A stretch of 64,000 bases of DNA, taken from the IMG/VR virus record IMGVR_UViG_3300043080_000191. The stretch is one strand, 5' to 3'. Positions 44,735 through 59,026 of this stretch are shown piece after piece. Each line of letters starts with the position of its first letter. The first letter of the stretch is position 1. The position numbers were made by a program, and so were the translations under genes. The stretch is from a virus. The notes under the pieces are model-generated. The model was not told the DNA's origin. It did no database searches and saw only the letters and a list, made by a program, of their open reading frames with translations.

Positions 44735-46064
44735 TTACTCCTCTTCCAAATCACCTTGATATCTATGATCTCTTAATCGGATTCTTCCATCTTCATATAT
44801 TTCATCAATTTTGTATAACTGATGACCACCAGAAGATGCATATTTCTTAGAAATAAAATCATCTCCAGAGCGAATACCCATTACTACAATCATATTACCT
44901 CTATTAAACCAAGATTTTTCAACCACATGTTTTACTCCATCATCGCCTTTAATTGAAATTTGTTTATCAAATAAAGCAAAATATTCTTTTCTAAACTTAA
45001 CATTTACAACTCCAGAAGTGGTTAATAAGGTAACTGTACTCTTTGCTTTATTCTTAGCAATACATGTGCCGCAAATCTTATTTAATTTAAAGATGTTAAT
45101 TGTCTTTCCACCTTTGGTGAAAGTTCTTTCAACTACTGGATTTTCTGGAAGCTTAAAGAAATCACTAAAACCATATAAAGTATTATTTACATGCGCTAAT
45201 TCATGCTCGTGATAATAAAAACATAATGCTTCCATTTCCCATGCAGATATTGTTCCTTTGGCATATTTTTGCCAATCATCCATAAAGATTTTAGAATTAA
45301 GCTCATTTAAAATGGCTTCTTTATCTGCGGCAATCCAAACTCTAAAGACGTCCATCCAACTCTGATAATATTTATCCCATGCTTTTACATCAAGATAATA
45401 TCCTAATCCATCACATGTAATTAAGTCATTCATTTCTATTTCAGATAAGAAATTAAAGGCTCTATCGTCAAGTGTATAATATGTCATAGCTTTATTTGGT
45501 CTACACATTGCTTTTAAGTATCTATTAAATTCATAGATTCTTCTTGCCATAACTCTTTCATCTGTATCTTCTGGAAGAAGATTATGTCGAATCAAACCAG
45601 GAAGATTCTGCAATGTAAGTCTCTTTTTCTTATCACATGTTTCCCAGATATACCATCCCATACACTGACGACGATCCATCATATCATCAAAAGCTCCACC
45701 TTTAATAAGCGAAATCATTGCTTGCTTTCCGGGATGAACTTTATTTAAAAAGTCTCTAGGAGAAACATAAGGTCTATTCTTAATTGTCGCTTCAATTATA
45801 TCATCACCAACATTCAACATAGCTTTCATGCCATAAAGAATCCTATGATTTTCTGCATCTGGCTTAAATCCAAAATCTGAATGATTAATATTTACTAAAC
45901 TAAGATTAATACCAGCATTAATAATTTCACCCATAGCTTTTGCAATTTTACCATAATCAGTTTGTCCTGCATTTTCTGGATCAGTTGCGCCACTATTTAC
46001 AATCAAACAAGCTGTGTTCCAATAAATAGGATCCCAGTTAGTTGCAATAAATAATGTCTGAACA
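44735..46064 (-). CDS. dnaE: DNA polymerase III alpha (DnaE) exon 3 (C-terminal HhH/OB region)
   Basis: '...IGVQTLFIATNWDPIYWNTACLIVNSGATDPEN...SLIKGGAFD' aligns to DnaE '[11 protein letters not shown]...'. The frame is open upstream of the annotated TTG, back to the intron. Confidence 0.7.
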
Positions 46065-47308
46065 CCGATGAAAGAATAAGCTAATGCGTGTATGCATTAT
46101 TATAAAAATAACTGACTATTTTTTACAGTCGTAGTAGTGAAGTTGGTAAGGCTTCTTGACTGCACACTATTTCCCAGAACGTATCAATAGTTCCAGTACT
46201 CCCGGTCTAATCCAGGATAGTCGATACAACATTTCAAGTTTAAAAGGTTTATTTTTTATTTTCTTAAAGGATAAGAAAGATTTTCTTTTTTATGCGCTCG
46301 TCCTGCATTAATATTTTTTACAGTTGAATAACTTTTATTCCATTTTATAGCAATTTTATTAAGAGATAAATCAGTTTCTAAAATATCTTTTATAATTCCA
46401 TTTACCCAAATTTGATTATTTTCCTTTCTACTTCCTTTATTACAAAGTGGATAAGTATCTTCTTCACTATAAAAATATTTTCCAGTATTTATCATTGATA
46501 AAAAACCAGCGCTTTTAATATTAAAATCTTTTTGTATACTAGAATATTTTTCCCCTGATTTAATTCTATTTTTAATTTCTCTAATCTCTTTTTGAGAAAA
46601 TCTGCTTTTAGCATTTTTCTTTAATGGATAATTAAAATCAGGATTATAAAAATTAGCTCCTGTATTAATATTAACTAAAAAAGTTCTTTTTAATTTTGGA
46701 GAATAAATTTTTTCGATATCATCATATTCTTCATCATTTATTAATCTCCTCTGAATATCTTTAATCTCTTCTCCTGTAAATAATTTAGAACGTTGCAATT
46801 TTTCTAAATAAGTTAATGGAGGTTTTGAACATCCATCTCCACCTTTAGTTAAGTTATATCCATTTTCAGTAGTTAAAGAGTGAAAATGTTCAATAAAATA
46901 AATTTCTCTATCATTTATAAAATCTTTTGATTCTCCATCTGCAATTTCTTCTAAAACTTCATATGAAAAATTATTCATTCCATATTTCCTAATTGCGCAA
47001 TGAAAAGGTAAATAATATCCATTACTTTTAATATTAAAAGCTTCACTTTTATGCCCATTAAATCTTTTTTGCAAATCATTTGTTTGTCCAATATAAATCT
47101 TTCCATTTATCTTATTGGTATATTTATAAATATAATACATATTTCTCCCTCCTCTCTGTGGATATTTGAAAATTTTAATACCTCTTTTAAACTGATTTGT
47201 CACGAGATTTTACCCTCGTTAGCAATTAATCATTGATTTTACCAGAATCAATTTTCAATTAATTACCCCGATGATGAATCGGTTAAGTGTGTAAGCGCCA
47301 TTTACACA
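46065..47308 (-). mobile_element. Group I intron (about 1.24 kb) in dnaE carrying a GIY-YIG homing endonuclease; boundaries +/-20 nt
   Basis: dnaE is interrupted between '...KYGAGPQMGYSF' and 'IGVQTLF...' (E. coli DnaE is continuous here: [21 protein letters not shown]). The 3' segment has P7-type elements UAUCGACUAUCC ... AAAAAUAGUCAG. The exon-1 reading frame hits a stop 3 codons into the insert. Confidence 0.6.
46256..47140 (-). CDS. GIY-YIG homing endonuclease (intron-encoded), with C-terminal NUMOD-like HTH repeats
   Basis: 'MYYIYKYTNKINGKIYIGQTNDLQKRFNGHK...GYNLTKGGDG' after RBS GAGGAGGGAG. The ORF-track start at 47203 is an upstream GTG with no RBS. Confidence 0.8.
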   Translation of the reverse strand: MYYIYKYTNKINGKIYIGQTNDLQKRFNGHKSEAFNIKSNGYYLPFHCAIRKYGMNNFSYEVLEEIADGESKDFINDREIYFIEHFHSLTTENGYNLTKGGDGCSKPPLTYLEKLQRSKLFTGEEIKDIQRRLINDEEYDDIEKIYSPKLKRTFLVNINTGANFYNPDFNYPLKKNAKSRFSQKEIREIKNRIKSGEKYSSIQKDFNIKSAGFLSMINTGKYFYSEEDTYPLCNKGSRKENNQIWVNGIIKDILETDLSLNKIAIKWNKSYSTVKNINAGRAHKKENLSYPLRK

Positions 47309-48501
47309 ACGCTGAATGAATAACCCATCTGTGGACCTGCACCATATTTCCAGATATATTCTCCCAATTTTTTGGAAGTCGCCTTAGATAAAACTTTTGC
47401 TTTCAATTCTGGAATCTTTGACATCTGCTTCTTACCAACAATTTTACGAGCCGCATTTGCTTCACCAAGAGAAAAACCGCAAATATCTTTATCCATTAAC
47501 ATTCTCATTAATTGCTCCTGGCTTGGTGGAACTCCATATGATTGTTTAAAATAAGGTTCAATAGTTTTTTGCTCTTCTTTTGTTAGACCAAAATTATCCA
47601 TTTCTTTATACCATAAGCTAATATCTTTCTTATACTTACAGTATTTTACCATTGGGCGTTCCTCACCTTCTTCTCCAGTGAGTCGCATAAGACCATTCGC
47701 ATCTGCCATTTCAAGCACATTCTGCGGTTTAATCATTTTCGCTGCTTGGGCTCCAACCTGTGAATCAAACTGAAATGTATTAATTACAGATACATTACTA
47801 AGAGCATCCCAAATTTTTTGATCCTGTAGAGGAAGAACATTTGGATGAAAATACTTATCATATACTTCACGTAATTTTAACTCTGGATCAATTAAATTAT
47901 CAGCCTGAAGTAATTGAATTGTTTGAACTAATTTATCCTGAACCTCAGTTACAAGAAAATCATATTTTGTTAAGCCCATATACTCAGCATTATGAAGATC
48001 AAACTGAGTAATAACCTCTCCTTTTGGAGTTTTCATAAAGGCGCTATGCTCAAATGGGTCACCATCAAAAAGAATAACTCCAGAAGCATGAGAAGAACGC
48101 TTATTTACAAGACCTTCAATAGACATAATAATATCCAATAAACCTGGATAATTATTTACTTCACGCACAAATACAGAAATTGGTCTTCTATTTTTTTCTG
48201 GATTACCATTAACAACATCTTTAATTGGCCATAAAAATCCACGCTCTTCTGGAATTAAAGATGACATATACTGAGCTTCATCAATATCAATTCCTTCTGG
48301 ATAATCCTCAGATCTATATCCACGACAAGCGGTTAATACAGCAGATTTAGTTCCTTCTGTTCCAAAAGTTGCAATAAGAGTACAACCAAGTGCTTTCTTT
48401 GCCCATTCCGCAATTCCTTCTTTAAGCATTGCGCTTCTTTCTTCTCTAATTCTTTGAAGAATTAAAGGTCTCTTAGATGGACATATATCAATATCAATAT
48501 C
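47309..48501 (-). CDS. dnaE: DNA polymerase III alpha (DnaE) exon 2 (palm/fingers)
   Basis: Begins 'DIDIDICPSKRP...' (E. coli PDFDVDFCMEKRD) and contains 'RSSHASGVILFDGDPFEHSAFMKTPKGEVITQFDLHNAEYMGLTKYDFL' (DnaE 'HAAGVVI...TQFD...GLLKMDFLGL'). Confidence 0.75.
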
Positions 48502-48838
48502 CTTTTATTGGACTATCTCTTTCACAATAATCTACTGAGAGTTATTACTTCGATTATTGCTAGAATGCGCTACGGGACAGTGCATCTCCATCCCTCTCAA
48601 AACTTTTATAAAAAGTTTTATTTAGTCTCTACACTCCAATAAATTTTATTAAAGCACGGTATTGCAAAGTCCAACCATATTTCAGGCCACTCGTTCTCTT
48701 AGTCAGCTGATTCGTGTTTATATTTTTTTTGATAAACCTTATTTTGCTGATACCGTTAGCATAATTTTTTTTTAATTACACACCCTTTAGCAAGGTTCAC
48801 ATTCTTTATTTACAACTCGGCAATATCAATATTAGACT
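48502..48838 (-). mobile_element. ORF-less group I intron (about 337 nt) in dnaE at the PDIDID motif
   Basis: Exon 1 ends ...ERVELG(GGU). Intron nt 18-24 GCCGAGU pair with the exon end ACUCGGU, giving P1 with a U-G wobble at the 5' splice site. R-like GUGUAGAGACUAAAU and S-like AAGAGAUAGUCC (P7 GACUA/UAGUC) are present. The intron ends ...AAUAAAAG (omega-G) before GAUAUUGAU (DIDIDI). The spliced product 'ERVELGDIDIDICPSKR' matches E. coli 'ERVSMPDFDVDFCMEKR'. Confidence 0.7.
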
Positions 48839-50182
48839 ACCGAGTTCGACTCTCTCATCATTAAGATAACGAAAGAACGGAAGATCCCATTCAATAGGAT
48901 CAAGCTGAGTAATACCCATAAGATAATGATTTAATGCGGCACATGAAGAACCACGACCTGCGCCAACCATCGAACCACAATCCCAAATCATATCAATATA
49001 ATGTTGTAAAGTATTCGGATAACGAAACATATTCGTTTCAAGTTTTTCACTAATTACAGTTTTAACTCTAGCTTCTTCTTCAAGTTCTGTGATATATCTA
49101 TTATCTGTAATTAGATTTTTTTCTTCCAAAGATTCAAGACACTGATTTACCCAATATCTATCTTGGTCATCATCAGAGTGCGCCAATCGAGTTAAGTTTG
49201 GACAAGACTCGCTATCAATACTCCATGGAATATTTTTAGGATATTTTTTAACTTCTACTCTTGGAATATCCTGCTTATGAAAAAGAGAATACTGTTCAAT
49301 TTTATCTTGCATTTCAAGAGTATTATCTAAAATTTTATCTACAAAACCATATGGAAAACAAGGGGATAATAATTCTTCAATTTCTTCTGAATCCATTAAA
49401 TGTGCAAATTCATAAAAAGAATCAATTTCACGCTCTCCATTTTTAGAATTAAGATAACCTTTATGTACAGCTCGATCTTCTTTTGTAAGATAATGAGCAT
49501 CAGTACCAACAACCATTTTAATTCCAAACATTTGGGCAATTTGGTATAATTTCATATTGACGGTCATCTGATCTTCAGCAGTTGAAGGCGCGCACTCAAT
49601 ATAAAAATCATCACCAAATAAGTTCAAGCAATATAAAATAAAATCTTGAACTTTATCCATATAGAAATTATAAGAATTAATATCATTAACTTTTTTAGAT
49701 TCCTCAGCTAATAATGTATTGCTTGATAACTCACCGCCAATACAAGCTGTGGTTGCTATGACATGACCTTTATACTGCTGGATAATATCACTTAATTCAT
49801 CTTTTGTAGTTGGAACTCTTTCCATTCCTCTATCAGAGTAAGAATAATACCAAGCTGTAGAGCTTAATTCTTTTAAAGCTCTATATCCAATTTCATCTTT
49901 TGCAATAAGAATGAAATGATAATATTTCTGACCATTTTGTCTTTCATCAACAAGATAGATTTCATTTCCTAAAGCAACTTTAAAATCTTTGTTTTGAATT
50001 TTTTCAAGATGTTGCAGAGCGGAAACATGAGCAGATAAACATTCATGATCTGTAATTGCAATGCCAGAAAGCCCTAATTCAATCGCTTTATCAATTAGGG
50101 CTTCTGGTCTATTAATGCAATCAAGAAGTCTAATGTTAGAATACATTGTATGTGAATGACAATTAAAATAACTTCTTCTCAT
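48839..50182 (-). CDS. dnaE: DNA polymerase III alpha (DnaE) exon 1 (PHP domain and N-terminal palm)
   Basis: 'NCHSHTMYSNIRLLDC...IAITDHE' is a PHP domain. '...GAGRGSSCAALNHYLMGITQLDPIEWDLPFFRYLNDERV' matches DnaE '[37 protein letters not shown]'. Confidence 0.8.
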
Positions 50183-57654: not shown

Positions 57655-58010
57655 AATACAATCCTTTCTTTAAATAGTTGTAAAAATATTTCTTTTCCAC
57701 AATCAACTGGAGAGTCTTTATATCCAGTAATCATATTTTTATCAAAAATAAAAGAAATCGTTACATAATTTTTATATTTATTTCTTAATCTTATCAAATT
57801 ACTTTTTAAATGCTGAAACTCTTTATCTCCAATCTCTTGAAACTGCCTATCAAAAGCAACTATAATTTCAGTTGCGCCAGCCCCAATTAATAATTCAATT
57901 TGATAAGAAGAAACACTTGAACCACAACATGCTACAGATATATCATTTTCTAAACCAAAATAACTTTTATATAGAAGTGTACTTTTTTCCATATGAATCT
58001 TGAATTTCTT
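57651..58010 (-). CDS. dnaG: DNA primase (DnaG-like) exon 2: C-terminal half of the TOPRIM domain
   Basis: 'YFGLENDISVACCGSSVSSYQIELLIGAGATEIIVAFDRQF' matches TOPRIM 'YGINYAVASLGTS...VVLCYDGDRAG'. The frame is open upstream of the annotated TTG into the intron. The exact 3' splice site is ambiguous (58010 or 58016). Confidence 0.6.
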   Translation of the reverse strand, partial: KKFKIHMEKSTLLYKSYFGLENDISVACCGSSVSSYQIELLIGAGATEIIVAFDRQFQEIGDKEFQHLKSNLIRLRNKYKNYVTISFIFDKNMITGYKDSPVDCGKEIFLQLFKERIVL

Positions 58011-59026
58011 CAAGTACTGACTATCTCTTCCAATTATAAATATATAATTGCTGCCGTTTTGAGAATTGTATCAATAAATTCTCTACTTCCTTTACCGGAA
58101 TAGTCGATACAGGCTTATTTGTTTTTCCAATAAACTCTTTTACTTATAGAACGAGATTTTGTTCTTAATGGATATATATATCCTTTTAATCTATAGGCTT
58201 TAGTTTTTCCACGATTAATATCCATTATAGTTGAAGATGAACAATTAAATTGCTTAGAAATTTCAATAAAAGTTTTATCATTCTTTAAAATTTCCTCATG
58301 GATTTTTTTACATTCTTCTTGAGAAAAACGTAATCCTTTTGTACCTTTCATATTTGAAGATCGAATAGGATAAATTAAATTATCTCTTTTCCTTCGTTTA
58401 CCAGTATTTATATTATAAATATGTGTCATTGAAATTCCTGTTTTATTCATTATATCATTGTAAGAATAACTTTCATCTTTCAACATTTCAATAACTATAT
58501 CTATTTTATCTTCAGTAAATACTGGCCTAATTGGATTTGCGCCGCCAGTTGTTTGGTTATATCCATCATAATAAGTGTTATAATATGCAATCCAATATTT
58601 TTCTTTATCATTTAATTCTTCTTTTAAGAGATTTCTTTCTAAAATAATTAATTCGTATTCATCTTCTCCATATTTTCTAATTCCTCTGCTTAAAGGATAA
58701 TTATATTCTTTAAGTGAAATATCGAAAGGGTCATATTGTATATGTCTTTTATGCCTTTCTTTTAAATTTTCTGTTTGACCAACATATACAATTTTATTAT
58801 TTGATTTTTTTCTATAGGCATAAATAACATTGTCAATCATTTATAGTAAGACCTCCTTTTTTCATCTTTACTATGAAAAGAGATCCTTATTGTTTAAACA
58901 AATTTTCCCACGGGACCACCTTATTTTTCAATTTAGGCTCCCCCGTTAGCATATATACCATTTTTTTGGCGTATATATACCCCGCTGATAAACGGAAAAG
59001 CAGACTAGGGCGAAACACTAACTTTT
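58011..59026 (-). mobile_element. Group I intron (about 1.0 kb) in the primase gene carrying a GIY-YIG homing endonuclease
   Basis: Primase exon 1 ends '...AIIFEG' (TOPRIM 'EG') and then hits a stop. A possible P1 pairs exon AGGGU with intron GCCCU. 3' elements UAUCGACUAUUCC ... AGAGAUAGUCAG are near-identical to the dnaE HEG-containing intron. Confidence 0.55.
58115..58840 (-). CDS. GIY-YIG homing endonuclease (intron-encoded), paralog of the dnaE intron HEG
   Basis: 'NVIYAYRKKSNNKIVYVGQTENLKERHKRH...GYNQTTGGAN'. RBS AAGGAGG. C-terminal HTH-like repeats. Confidence 0.8.
   Translation of the reverse strand: MIDNVIYAYRKKSNNKIVYVGQTENLKERHKRHIQYDPFDISLKEYNYPLSRGIRKYGEDEYELIILERNLLKEELNDKEKYWIAYYNTYYDGYNQTTGGANPIRPVFTEDKIDIVIEMLKDESYSYNDIMNKTGISMTHIYNINTGKRRKRDNLIYPIRSSNMKGTKGLRFSQEECKKIHEEILKNDKTFIEISKQFNCSSSTIMDINRGKTKAYRLKGYIYPLRTKSRSISKRVYWKNK

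Follow-up and report, generated by a model that had tools for sequence, protein, structure and literature searches.

Why should a phage polymerase gene be spread over three long open reading frames (ORFs), with an ORF for a nuclease lodged between the last two? The question is raised by the minus strand of a 64,000-nucleotide (nt) stretch of viral DNA, IMG/VR record IMGVR_UViG_3300043080_000191 (hereafter the window), in which dnaE is divided into three long ORFs with consecutive DnaE domains. Our analysis indicates that the second interruption of the gene, 47308..46095 on the minus strand, is very probably a mobile group I intron of the phage IA2 type (that of T4 td and of Twort), inserted in a motif of the DnaE finger domain. 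Its boundaries, the match of its exons in order and frame to intron-less alleles, an RNA structure that is conserved and covaries, and the family membership of its endonuclease are established. The element is an ordinary kind of selfish element, although its RNA is without the P5 helix usual in such introns. A preliminary description of the window had already proposed a second interruption of dnaE by a group I intron with a GIY-YIG endonuclease, and a gene of three exons. Both proposals hold: colinearity, splice-site rules, the P1 and P10 pairings, covariation and matches above curated thresholds bear out the intron, and the exons are colinear with intron-less alleles.

The junction in dnaE

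The reading frame of exon 2 halts at '…GAGPQMGYSFSVV*' (the end of ORF 48429..47302) and picks up again downstream, where the residues leading up to 'IGVQ' are …C-I-H-A-L-A-Y-S-F-IGVQ. The last nucleotide of exon 2 is U47309, the first of exon 3 is C46094, and the insert ends in G46095. Joined as AGC GU|…G|C AUA CAC, the exons read …GYSFS-V-IHALAYSFIGVQ, and the spliced protein (…QMGYSFS-V-IHALAYSF…) shows no gaps against uninterrupted phage DnaE proteins. We accepted 47308..46095 as the boundary because this is the only junction that fits at once the length and frame of the intron-less genes, a U at the end of the 5' exon and a G at the end of the intron. The insert had been placed before at 46065-47308, with a length of ~1.24 kilobases (kb): the 47308 end stands, and the other end moves to the true 3' end at G46095, which gives 1214 nt. 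The peptide formerly thought to flank the 3' boundary was likewise off by 30 nt (10 codons), VIHALAYSF being coded by the exon.

The insertion point lies in the conserved finger-domain motif GYSF-S-V-I-H-A-x-AY. Comparison with intron-less alleles, a check that the preliminary description had recommended, gives a gapless junction against Enterococcus phage VRE9_3, whose DnaE is uninterrupted (QMGYSFS|ILHTIGY), against SPbeta YorL (QFGYSFS|LLHTLAY) and against L107, an intron-less metagenomic allele from IMG/VR with 80% identity in the vicinity of the site (GYSFSIIHALAY). More broadly, a 291-amino-acid (aa) peptide spanning the spliced junction aligns as one gapless piece in 236 phage records. 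With these 236 records, and with more than 15 metagenomic phage dnaE genes that carry a homologous insert at the same site, the agreement of insert and junction is not a matter of chance. Among 50,697 phage records, megablast with the dnaE region as query gave no match; the phage itself is absent from this collection. The predicted spliced DnaE has 1298 aa, with GYSFSVIHALAY in the peptide that spans the junction and …UUCAGCGU-CAUACACGC… as the spliced sequence; the corresponding intron-less junction would be CAGATGGGTTATTCATTCAGCGTCATACACGCATTAGCTTATTCTTTC for the dnaE of the window and GGATATTCATTTTCAATTATTCATGCTCTTGCATAT for an allele of the L107 type. The frame of exon 2 runs into a UAA a few nucleotides inside the intron, and a stop codon in such a position is usual in phage and bacterial group I introns (PMC2504315).

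A covarying group I structure around an endonuclease gene

The 3' flank of the intron found two phage loci by blastn, in VRE9_3 and in the gyrB gene of Lactococcus phage AM1, each of them a gene split by a GIY-YIG ORF; the 5' part gave chance-level matches only. From the core shared by these two loci we built a search pattern (GTATCGACTATC…AGTA…TATTGATAC), which on IMG/VR returned at least 119 loci. In about 18 of them, tblastn with the spliced DnaE located an insert of 1.16–1.26 kb at the same site, which we call site 847, in dnaE genes 33–75% identical to that of the window, and each of these inserts encodes a GIY-YIG ORF of ~300 aa. Thirteen distinct site-847 introns, from host dnaE genes 34–75% identical, were aligned with their ORFs removed (alignment A1); a structure model was written on this alignment from reading of the sequence, and the pairs were then counted. 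Across the 13 introns, 95.7% of the pair cells are paired, and compensatory double changes occur in 40 of the 74 pairs. None of 500 shuffled controls reached any of the five measures, and slid controls were 37–44% paired.

The covariation reaches both exon edges. The U•G pair of P1 is kept in all 13 homologues, and the remaining four P1 pairs all have compensatory changes, the helix following the exon sequence (AGCAU/GUGCU and ACAGGU/GCCUGU, for example). In P10, the AUG of the internal guide sequence pairs with the CAU of the 3' exon (46094..46092) in 100% of cases, an A-U pair becoming G-C in five sequences. P3 starts 2 nt after P1, with no P2 in between, and changes in step from CACACU/AGUGUG to CAAGCU/AGCUUG and to CAGGCU/AGCCUG. 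Two hairpins, which we call X and Y, stand between P3 and P4, and compensatory changes affect seven of the nine outer pairs of Y. P6 covaries (A-U to U-A in four sequences), and P6a, the stem that closes over the endonuclease ORF, keeps its complementarity with wholly different sequences from one member to another.

The catalytic core runs in the order P7–P7.1–AGUA–P7.2–GAAAU–P3'–P8–P7'. The two P7-type strands pointed out in the preliminary description, UAUCGACUAUCC (~46226..46215) and AAAAAUAGUCAG (~46123..46112), are present, and within them GACUAU and AUAGUC pair as P7. The helix has the form U[C]GACUAU with AUAGUC-A, its C bulged as in Twort, and its strands follow the pattern of Twort and of the Rfam consensus (…ACGACUA…/…AUAUAGUC); P3 crosses it as a pseudoknot and covaries. 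Between P7 and P3' stand the two hairpins P7.1 and P7.2 that characterise IA2 introns, both covarying. P9 is only a 5-base-pair (bp) A-U hairpin, and the terminal G of the intron recurs in all 13 homologues as well as in L081, a related locus with a nearby insertion site. All of these elements are listed in the table.

Features of the dnaE locus, of its second intron and of two further introns in the window
Feature	Position	Strand	Basis
ORF with PHP and start of DNA_pol3_alpha	50182..48806	-	Pfam
ORF with rest of DNA_pol3_alpha and finger domain	48429..47302	-	Pfam DNA_pol3_alpha, DNA_pol3_finger
ORF piece with HHH_6	46006 down to 44735	-	Pfam
dnaE exon 2, 3' end …CAG AUG GGU UAU UCA UUC AGC GU	47309..48501	-	Pfam; gapless against VRE9_3 and SPbeta YorL at both junctions
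dnaE exon 3, 5' end C AUA CAC GCA UUA GCU UAU UCU UUC AUC GGU…	44735..46094	-	Pfam HHH_6; alignment
Group I intron, dnaE intron 2, 1214 nt	46095..47308	-	Colinearity; U preceding the 5' splice site and terminal G of the intron; structure
In-frame UAA ending exon-2 translation, 7 nt into intron	47302..47304	-	ORF 48429..47302
P1 5'-exon strand AGCGU, U47309 the wobble U at the splice site	47309..47313	-	Pairs GCGCU 47298..47294
Internal guide sequence, AUG (P10 strand) then GCGCU (P1 strand)	47294..47301	-	
P3 5' strand CACACU, directly 3' of P1	47286..47291	-	Pairs AGUGUG 46168..46163
Hairpin X, CCGAU UCAUC AUCGG, between P3 and P4	47268..47282	-	Covariation; RNAalifold on ORF-less relatives; minimum-free-energy fold
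Hairpin Y, long, two-part, ends …GCU just 5' of AA-P4	47221..47267	-	Covariation; minimum-free-energy fold
P4 hairpin ACGAG-GGUAAAAU-CUCGU, no P5 helix	47202..47219	-	Invariant in 13/13 site-847 introns
P6 (GACA) and P6a 5' strand (CAGUUUAAAAGAGG)	47181..47201	-	Pairs 46247..46228 across ORF
Shine-Dalgarno GGAGGGAG, 4 nt upstream of ATG 47140	47145..47152	-	Read from sequence
GIY-YIG homing endonuclease ORF, 294 aa and stop, in P6a loop	46256..47140	-	Pfam, TIGR01453, PHROG, I-TevI domain
P6a 3' strand (CCUUUUAAACUUG) and P6 3' strand (UGUU)	46228..46247	-	
P7 5' strand GACUAU, in R element UGUAUCGACUAUCC	46217..46222	-	Pairs AUAGUC 46119..46114
P7.1 hairpin CCUGG AUUAGA CCGGG	46201..46216	-	4/5 pairs compensatory; also RNAalifold
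P7.2 hairpin CUGGAAC UAUUGAUAC GUUCUGG	46174..46196	-	4/7 pairs compensatory; also RNAalifold
P3 3' strand AGUGUG, after GAAAU	46163..46168	-	
P8 (CAGUC…GACUG)	46126..46162	-	4/5 pairs compensatory
P7 3' strand AUAGUC, in S element AAAAAAUAGUCAG	46114..46119	-	Pairing in 13-intron alignment
P9 mini-hairpin UUAUU UUUAU AAUAA, then U and terminal G46095	46095..46111	-	P9 covaries
dnaE intron 1, 337 nt, no ORF, junction ERVELG|DIDIDI	48502..48838	-	Gapless DnaE alignment
Third intron of the same family, in DnaG-type primase gene	57990..59026	-	Read from sequence

Folding methods recover much of the same structure. The minimum-free-energy fold of the intron without its ORF contains X, Y, P4, P6/P6a, P7.1 and P7.2 (z = -4.3), and RNAalifold, run independently of our model on nine ORF-less relatives, returns X, P4, P5, P6, P7, P7.1, P7.2 and P9 with compensatory changes. 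P3 was examined in 25 introns of the family: in all of them the stretch preceding X is complementary, over at least 5 consecutive bp, to the one that follows GAAAU, and at least 6 pairs form in 96% of self combinations versus 23% of non-self ones. Three other pairings or roles were considered and not taken up. If the 5' strand of P3 were the 3' side of Y, beside P4 as in td, it would have to match the post-GAAAU segment, to which that side shows no complementarity, whereas the post-P1 segment is complementary to it in 25 of 25. A GGUA/UAUC pairing of the splice-site region with J6/7, proposed by RNAalifold, is near-invariant and conflicts with P1, and was not adopted. Nor is the long hairpin Y, as a general rule, a substitute for the missing P5, as the P5-less introns of loci L007, L030, L053 and L054 have a short Y. 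Separately, GUAUC in J6/7 (46223..46227, minus strand) is perfectly complementary to GAUAC in the P7.2 loop (46181..46185). This could be a tertiary pairing, the conservation of which in our sample is uninformative since both segments are part of the search pattern.

The ORF enclosed by P6a begins with MYYIYKYTNKINGKIYIGQT and encodes a GIY-YIG endonuclease of the I-TevI type: PF01541 (GIY-YIG) matches at 31.4 bits (cut-off 22.6), TIGR01453, 'group I intron endonuclease', at 67.5 (cut-off 56.05), and PHROG 7168 with an E value of 2e-36. The catalytic domain of I-TevI (1MK0/1LN0) is matched by phmmer at E 1e-5 over the N-terminal 98 aa, where Y6, Y17, R27, H31, E75 and N90 of I-TevI are all aligned and conserved (6/6). 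The C-terminal two thirds hold three IN(T/A)G…YPL repeats (aa 158–173, 217–232 and 277–292), presumably DNA-binding modules. The ATG at 47140 is the likely start codon, since MxYIY is where each of the 18 homologues starts; an alternative GTG at 47203 is present in the list of ORFs and is used by one database entry (P0001, 315 aa). The ribosome-binding site of its own that had been ascribed to this gene is indeed found, as GGAGGGAG 4 nt upstream of the ATG. Homologues 55–85% identical are abundant in metagenome assemblies under names that are at most generic, such as 'GIY-YIG nuclease family protein', and in one source the endonuclease cluster P0051 goes by the name 'MAG: … [Bacilli bacterium]'. 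A scan of the intron region for promoters and terminators stayed at or below chance. In the site-847 introns of L071, L029, L057 and L010, a perfect TTGACA–17 nt–TATAAT lies just 5' of the endonuclease ribosome-binding site, in the P6a loop, which suggests a candidate internal promoter for the endonuclease; the intron of the window has nothing like it, only promoter-like sites at the level of chance.

Taken as a group I intron, the element would be expected to act as follows. The pre-mRNA would fold so that P1 sets U47309 against the guide GCGCU as a U•G wobble, and exogenous guanosine bound in P7 would attack the bond 3' of U47309. P10 (AUG/CAU) would position the 3' exon, and the freed 3'-OH would attack after G46095, joining …AGCGU to CAUACAC… and yielding a single DnaE of 1298 aa. 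The in-frame UAA 7 nt into the intron would bar ribosomes from the ribozyme core. By analogy with I-TevI, the endonuclease, translated from its own ribosome-binding site, would cut intron-less dnaE near the site in mixed infections, and repair of the cut allele would copy the intron in, that is, homing.

Departures from the group I plan and competing explanations

Several observations weigh against this reading. The Rfam group I model, RF00028, matches nothing in the whole window at its gathering threshold, nor in 45900–49000 at E <= 10. There is no P2, and the P5 helix is missing, P4 being capped by GGUAAAAU, which leaves the P4–P5–P6 domain incomplete; where an IA2 intron has P2 between P1 and P3, and P3 directly before J3/4-P4, hairpins X and Y here precede GCUAA-P4. 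The loss of P5 and P2 could in principle mean a crippled ribozyme. The comparison set was moreover picked by the core pattern, which in part builds in the lack of variation in P7 and the P7.2 loop; P7, being invariant, gives no covariation signal. Splicing, cleavage by the endonuclease and homing are, finally, all steps that we infer.

The silence of RF00028 is a limit of the model and not counter-evidence to the intron. The preliminary description had named a covariance-model search that finds no group I structure as a result that would count against its proposal, and formally this is what we obtained, even at E <= 10. We set this negative aside because the relatives show why the model fails. 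It misses the intron because of the ORF, the absent P2 and P5, and the two hairpins between P3 and P4. ORF-less family members likewise stay under the gathering threshold; the best sub-threshold score, 28.2 bits (E 2.8e-5, cut-off 50), belongs to an ORF-less dnaE relative, whose alignment to the model covers P4–P6, P7 and P9 but treats X and Y as an insertion and leaves P3 broken or mispaired. From these scores and this alignment, the family is related to the curated group I model yet beyond its reach. Conventional Twort-like introns in loci L017 and L097 are found by RF00028 at 85 bits.

The capping of P4 is not peculiar to the window. Relatives that have a P5 carry it at the same position, as a covarying GCC…GGU helix; in the wider family sample, the P5 region measures 19–117 nt in 83 loci and is an 8-nt loop in 21, and the P5-less P4 hairpin occurs in 21 of 109 family loci, the thyX intron included. 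Could these introns then be decaying, or dependent on a cofactor? Without P5 and P2, the RNA would self-splice inefficiently, and would either need a host or phage protein or inactivate dnaE in a defective element. P4 is indeed capped by 8 nt where relatives have 19–117, and P9, which normally joins P5 in the L9–P5 tertiary contact of group I introns, is here a hairpin of merely 5 A-U pairs. However, the 18-nt P4 hairpin is identical in 13 of 13 site-847 introns, all of them in intact dnaE genes, the hosts having diverged to 34% identity; all the other helices keep their pairing through compensatory changes while the dnaE exons stay open, and the GGUAAAAU loop retains the A-rich nucleotides of J4/5 and J5/4 (AAAAU). 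The invariant hairpin, the compensatory changes and the open exons therefore argue for selection for function, and we consider decay or impairment very unlikely; the intron may depend on a protein cofactor.

In some T4-like phages, genes are split by mob or seg endonucleases, and dnaE could similarly harbor a free-standing GIY-YIG gene, its polymerase being assembled from two polypeptides without any splicing. Such an arrangement would account for the stop codon that closes exon 2 (ORF 48429..47302), for the annotation of relatives as separate PHP/finger, GIY-YIG and HHH_6 ORFs, and for the lack of a ribozyme in Rfam. Yet the break falls inside the conserved motif GYSFSxxHxxAY and not between domains, and exon 3 has neither a start codon nor a Shine-Dalgarno sequence at the junction, its first in-frame start being TTG 46006, 88 nt downstream. 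Furthermore, the ~330 nt of non-coding flank fold as a covarying group I RNA, in which pairing through P1 and P10 reaches the edges of both exons, something for which a free-standing gene has no need. The break within a motif, the absence of a start signal in exon 3 and a ribozyme that pairs both exon edges make an unspliced split gene extremely unlikely. Inteins also come to mind, as dnaE is a classic intein host gene (PMC4760082, PMC2677866). The insert is out of frame, with a stop 7 nt in and many stops after it; Hint, LAGLIDADG and reverse-transcriptase domains are absent, and Rfam gave no match to a group II intron, so that both an intein and a group II intron are excluded by the sequence.

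A family of introns in phage genes

The mobility of the group I intron is suggested by its presence in some related dnaE genes and its absence from others. The gene is uninterrupted in L107 and L112, and close relatives of the window, with an endonuclease 81% identical, keep the site-847 intron, lack intron 1 and have another endonuclease-bearing insert after ~aa 720. Among related introns, the insertion sites fall at slightly different places relative to the His codon of the motif: -4 nt in the subfamily of the window, -2 nt in a second one (subfamily B) and -10 nt in L081, the site of L017 being 1 nt from that of L081. Each of these nearby-site introns has P1 and P10 pairings that match its own site. 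In subfamily B, the endonuclease is 43–54% identical and the ribozyme 67%, against only 34–37% for the host exon, which hints at lateral spread. About eight regions of phage dnaE carry insertions, related introns occupying several positions within ~12 nt of GYSFxxH.

Other observations extend this picture. The close relatives in loci L124–L127 (from ENA, Logan and the NCBI metagenome-assembled genome (MAG) GCA_017475375.1) match the window in gene order (helicase, dnaE, guanylate kinase, nrdD) and likewise carry the site-847 intron. At aa 448 their dnaE is uninterrupted, and the product of the different insert that follows ~aa 720 is a GIY-YIG protein, 251 aa long except in L125, where a 48-aa fragment is left. 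In the output of gene callers, the parts of this dnaE stand as separate PHP/finger, GIY-YIG and HHH_6 proteins. Across IMG/VR loci L005–L123 (L098, L084 and L114 among them), dnaE inserts lie near aa 447–449, 578/579, 621/625, 718/719, 805, 841/843, 847/848 and 933/938 (numbering of the window DnaE), with at least four inserts in the single dnaE gene of L098. Outside dnaE, the P4 hairpin ACGAG-GGUAAAAU-CUCGU is found in introns of L007 (~4650–5640), L030, L053 and L054; in L007 the host gene is ThyX-like, the ORF of the intron is a different one and its hairpin Y is short. In the deposited genomes of VRE9_3 (L003, ~1618–2630) and AM1 (L004, ~1590–2630) the family introns are unannotated, and AM1 gyrB appears as two 'DNA gyrase' coding sequences flanking a 'hypothetical protein', which is the GIY-YIG ORF. 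L003 also has a sub-threshold RF00028 match (31.5 bits, 3274–3518) further downstream, adjoining an HNH gene.

Two more introns of the window share the arrangement. The preliminary description took the two dnaE introns to be of different subtypes, which we could not confirm: as read from sequence, the unusual order of intron 2 recurs in intron 1, as P1–P3–hairpin–hairpin–GCUAACGG(P4), and P7.1 is there too. Its P1 is CUCGGU/GCCGAG, and its P3 (AGAAUG/CAUUCU) flanks X-like (CCUU/AAGG) and Y-like (GUAAUU/AAUUAU) hairpins; the latter is followed by GCUAACGG (P4), a large P5 region, P7 (AGACUA/UAGUC(C)) and P7.1. The main differences are the absence of an ORF and the large P5 region; Rfam gave no match to intron 1 either (45900–49000, E <= 10). 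The third intron, in the primase gene, has its 5' splice site after GAGGGU (U59027), a P1 of GAGGGU/GCCCU, then X, Y, GCUAACGGGG (P4) and a normal P5; it carries a 241-aa GIY-YIG ORF (58840..58115) and the core GUAUCGACUAUUCCGG…GGAAGUAG…UAUUGAUAC, and ends with P9 CUUGAA-GAAA-UUCAAG and terminal G 57990, with a P10 of GAAA/UUUC. Its exon junction is putative, and blastn with its 5' part found nothing.

The closest known parallel for the dnaE intron of the window (intron 2) is the T4 td intron with I-TevI, also a phage intron of IA2 type in a gene for DNA precursors or replication, and with a GIY-YIG ORF that has its own ribosome-binding site in the P6a loop. The P4 context of td, which we take to be UAA-CGGGG…AAUCCCGUG, is similar. 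The host gene differs (td there, dnaE here), and so do the lack of P2 before P3, the two hairpins between P3 and P4, the missing P5 and a minimal P9 without P9.1 or P9.2. The likeness to I-TevI itself is limited to the N-terminal 98 aa, the C-terminus of I-TevI consisting of a zinc finger and a helix-turn-helix in place of the three repeats. The Twort orf142-I2 ribozyme of a Staphylococcus phage (IA2, 1Y0Q), with the sequence that we assume for it, has a 3' half that is near-superimposable (ACGACUAU–P7.1–AGUA–P7.2–GAAAU–P3'–P8–AUAGUC); in contrast to the intron of the window, its P3 is preceded by P2, its P5 is normal and its P9 is accompanied by P9.1, and it is detected by RF00028. The gyrB intron of AM1 and that of VRE9_3 share with ours the order P1–P3–X–Y–GCUAACG-P4, the GIY-YIG ORF in P6a and the core GUAUCGACUAUC…AGUA…UAUUGAUAC, but lie in other host genes, and in both P5 is normal (GCCUAAGUC…GAUAUGGU) and hairpin Y short. 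The Firmicutes phages SPO1, SP82 and Bastille of Bacillus (I-HmuI, I-BasI) likewise have, in the replicative DNA polymerase gene, a self-splicing group I intron with a homing endonuclease (PMC3984707), although theirs are family A (Pol I-like) polymerases with nicking HNH enzymes, and that of the window is a family C polymerase (DnaE) with a GIY-YIG enzyme.

We put forward tentatively, and with somewhat less than even confidence, that the intron belongs to a large family of phage introns unrecognised by databases, without P2 and with two hairpins between P3 and P4, in which P5 has been replaced by the invariant 8-nt loop GGUAAAAU in the dnaE site-847 and thyX lineages. A search of the literature that was shallow, and is thus weak evidence of novelty, found no described group I intron in a phage dnaE, no 'P3.1', no P5-less intron and no description of the P3–X–Y–P4 wiring.

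For annotation, our reading means a single dnaE gene of 1298 aa with two introns, and not the three polymerase fragments plus stray nuclease that gene callers and deposited records make of the dnaE of relatives. If the family is what we suggest, phage genomes would be systematically under-annotated for introns. Phage dnaE proves to be a hot spot for these elements and offers a good natural system to study how endonucleases choose their targets and how introns spread. Of interest for RNA structure is also a P5-less variant that is conserved, has its periphery rearranged and escapes RF00028. Conservation in an essential gene implies self-splicing; if these introns do self-splice, they would be natural group I ribozymes without P5, with a minimal P4–P6 domain that covariance models have missed.

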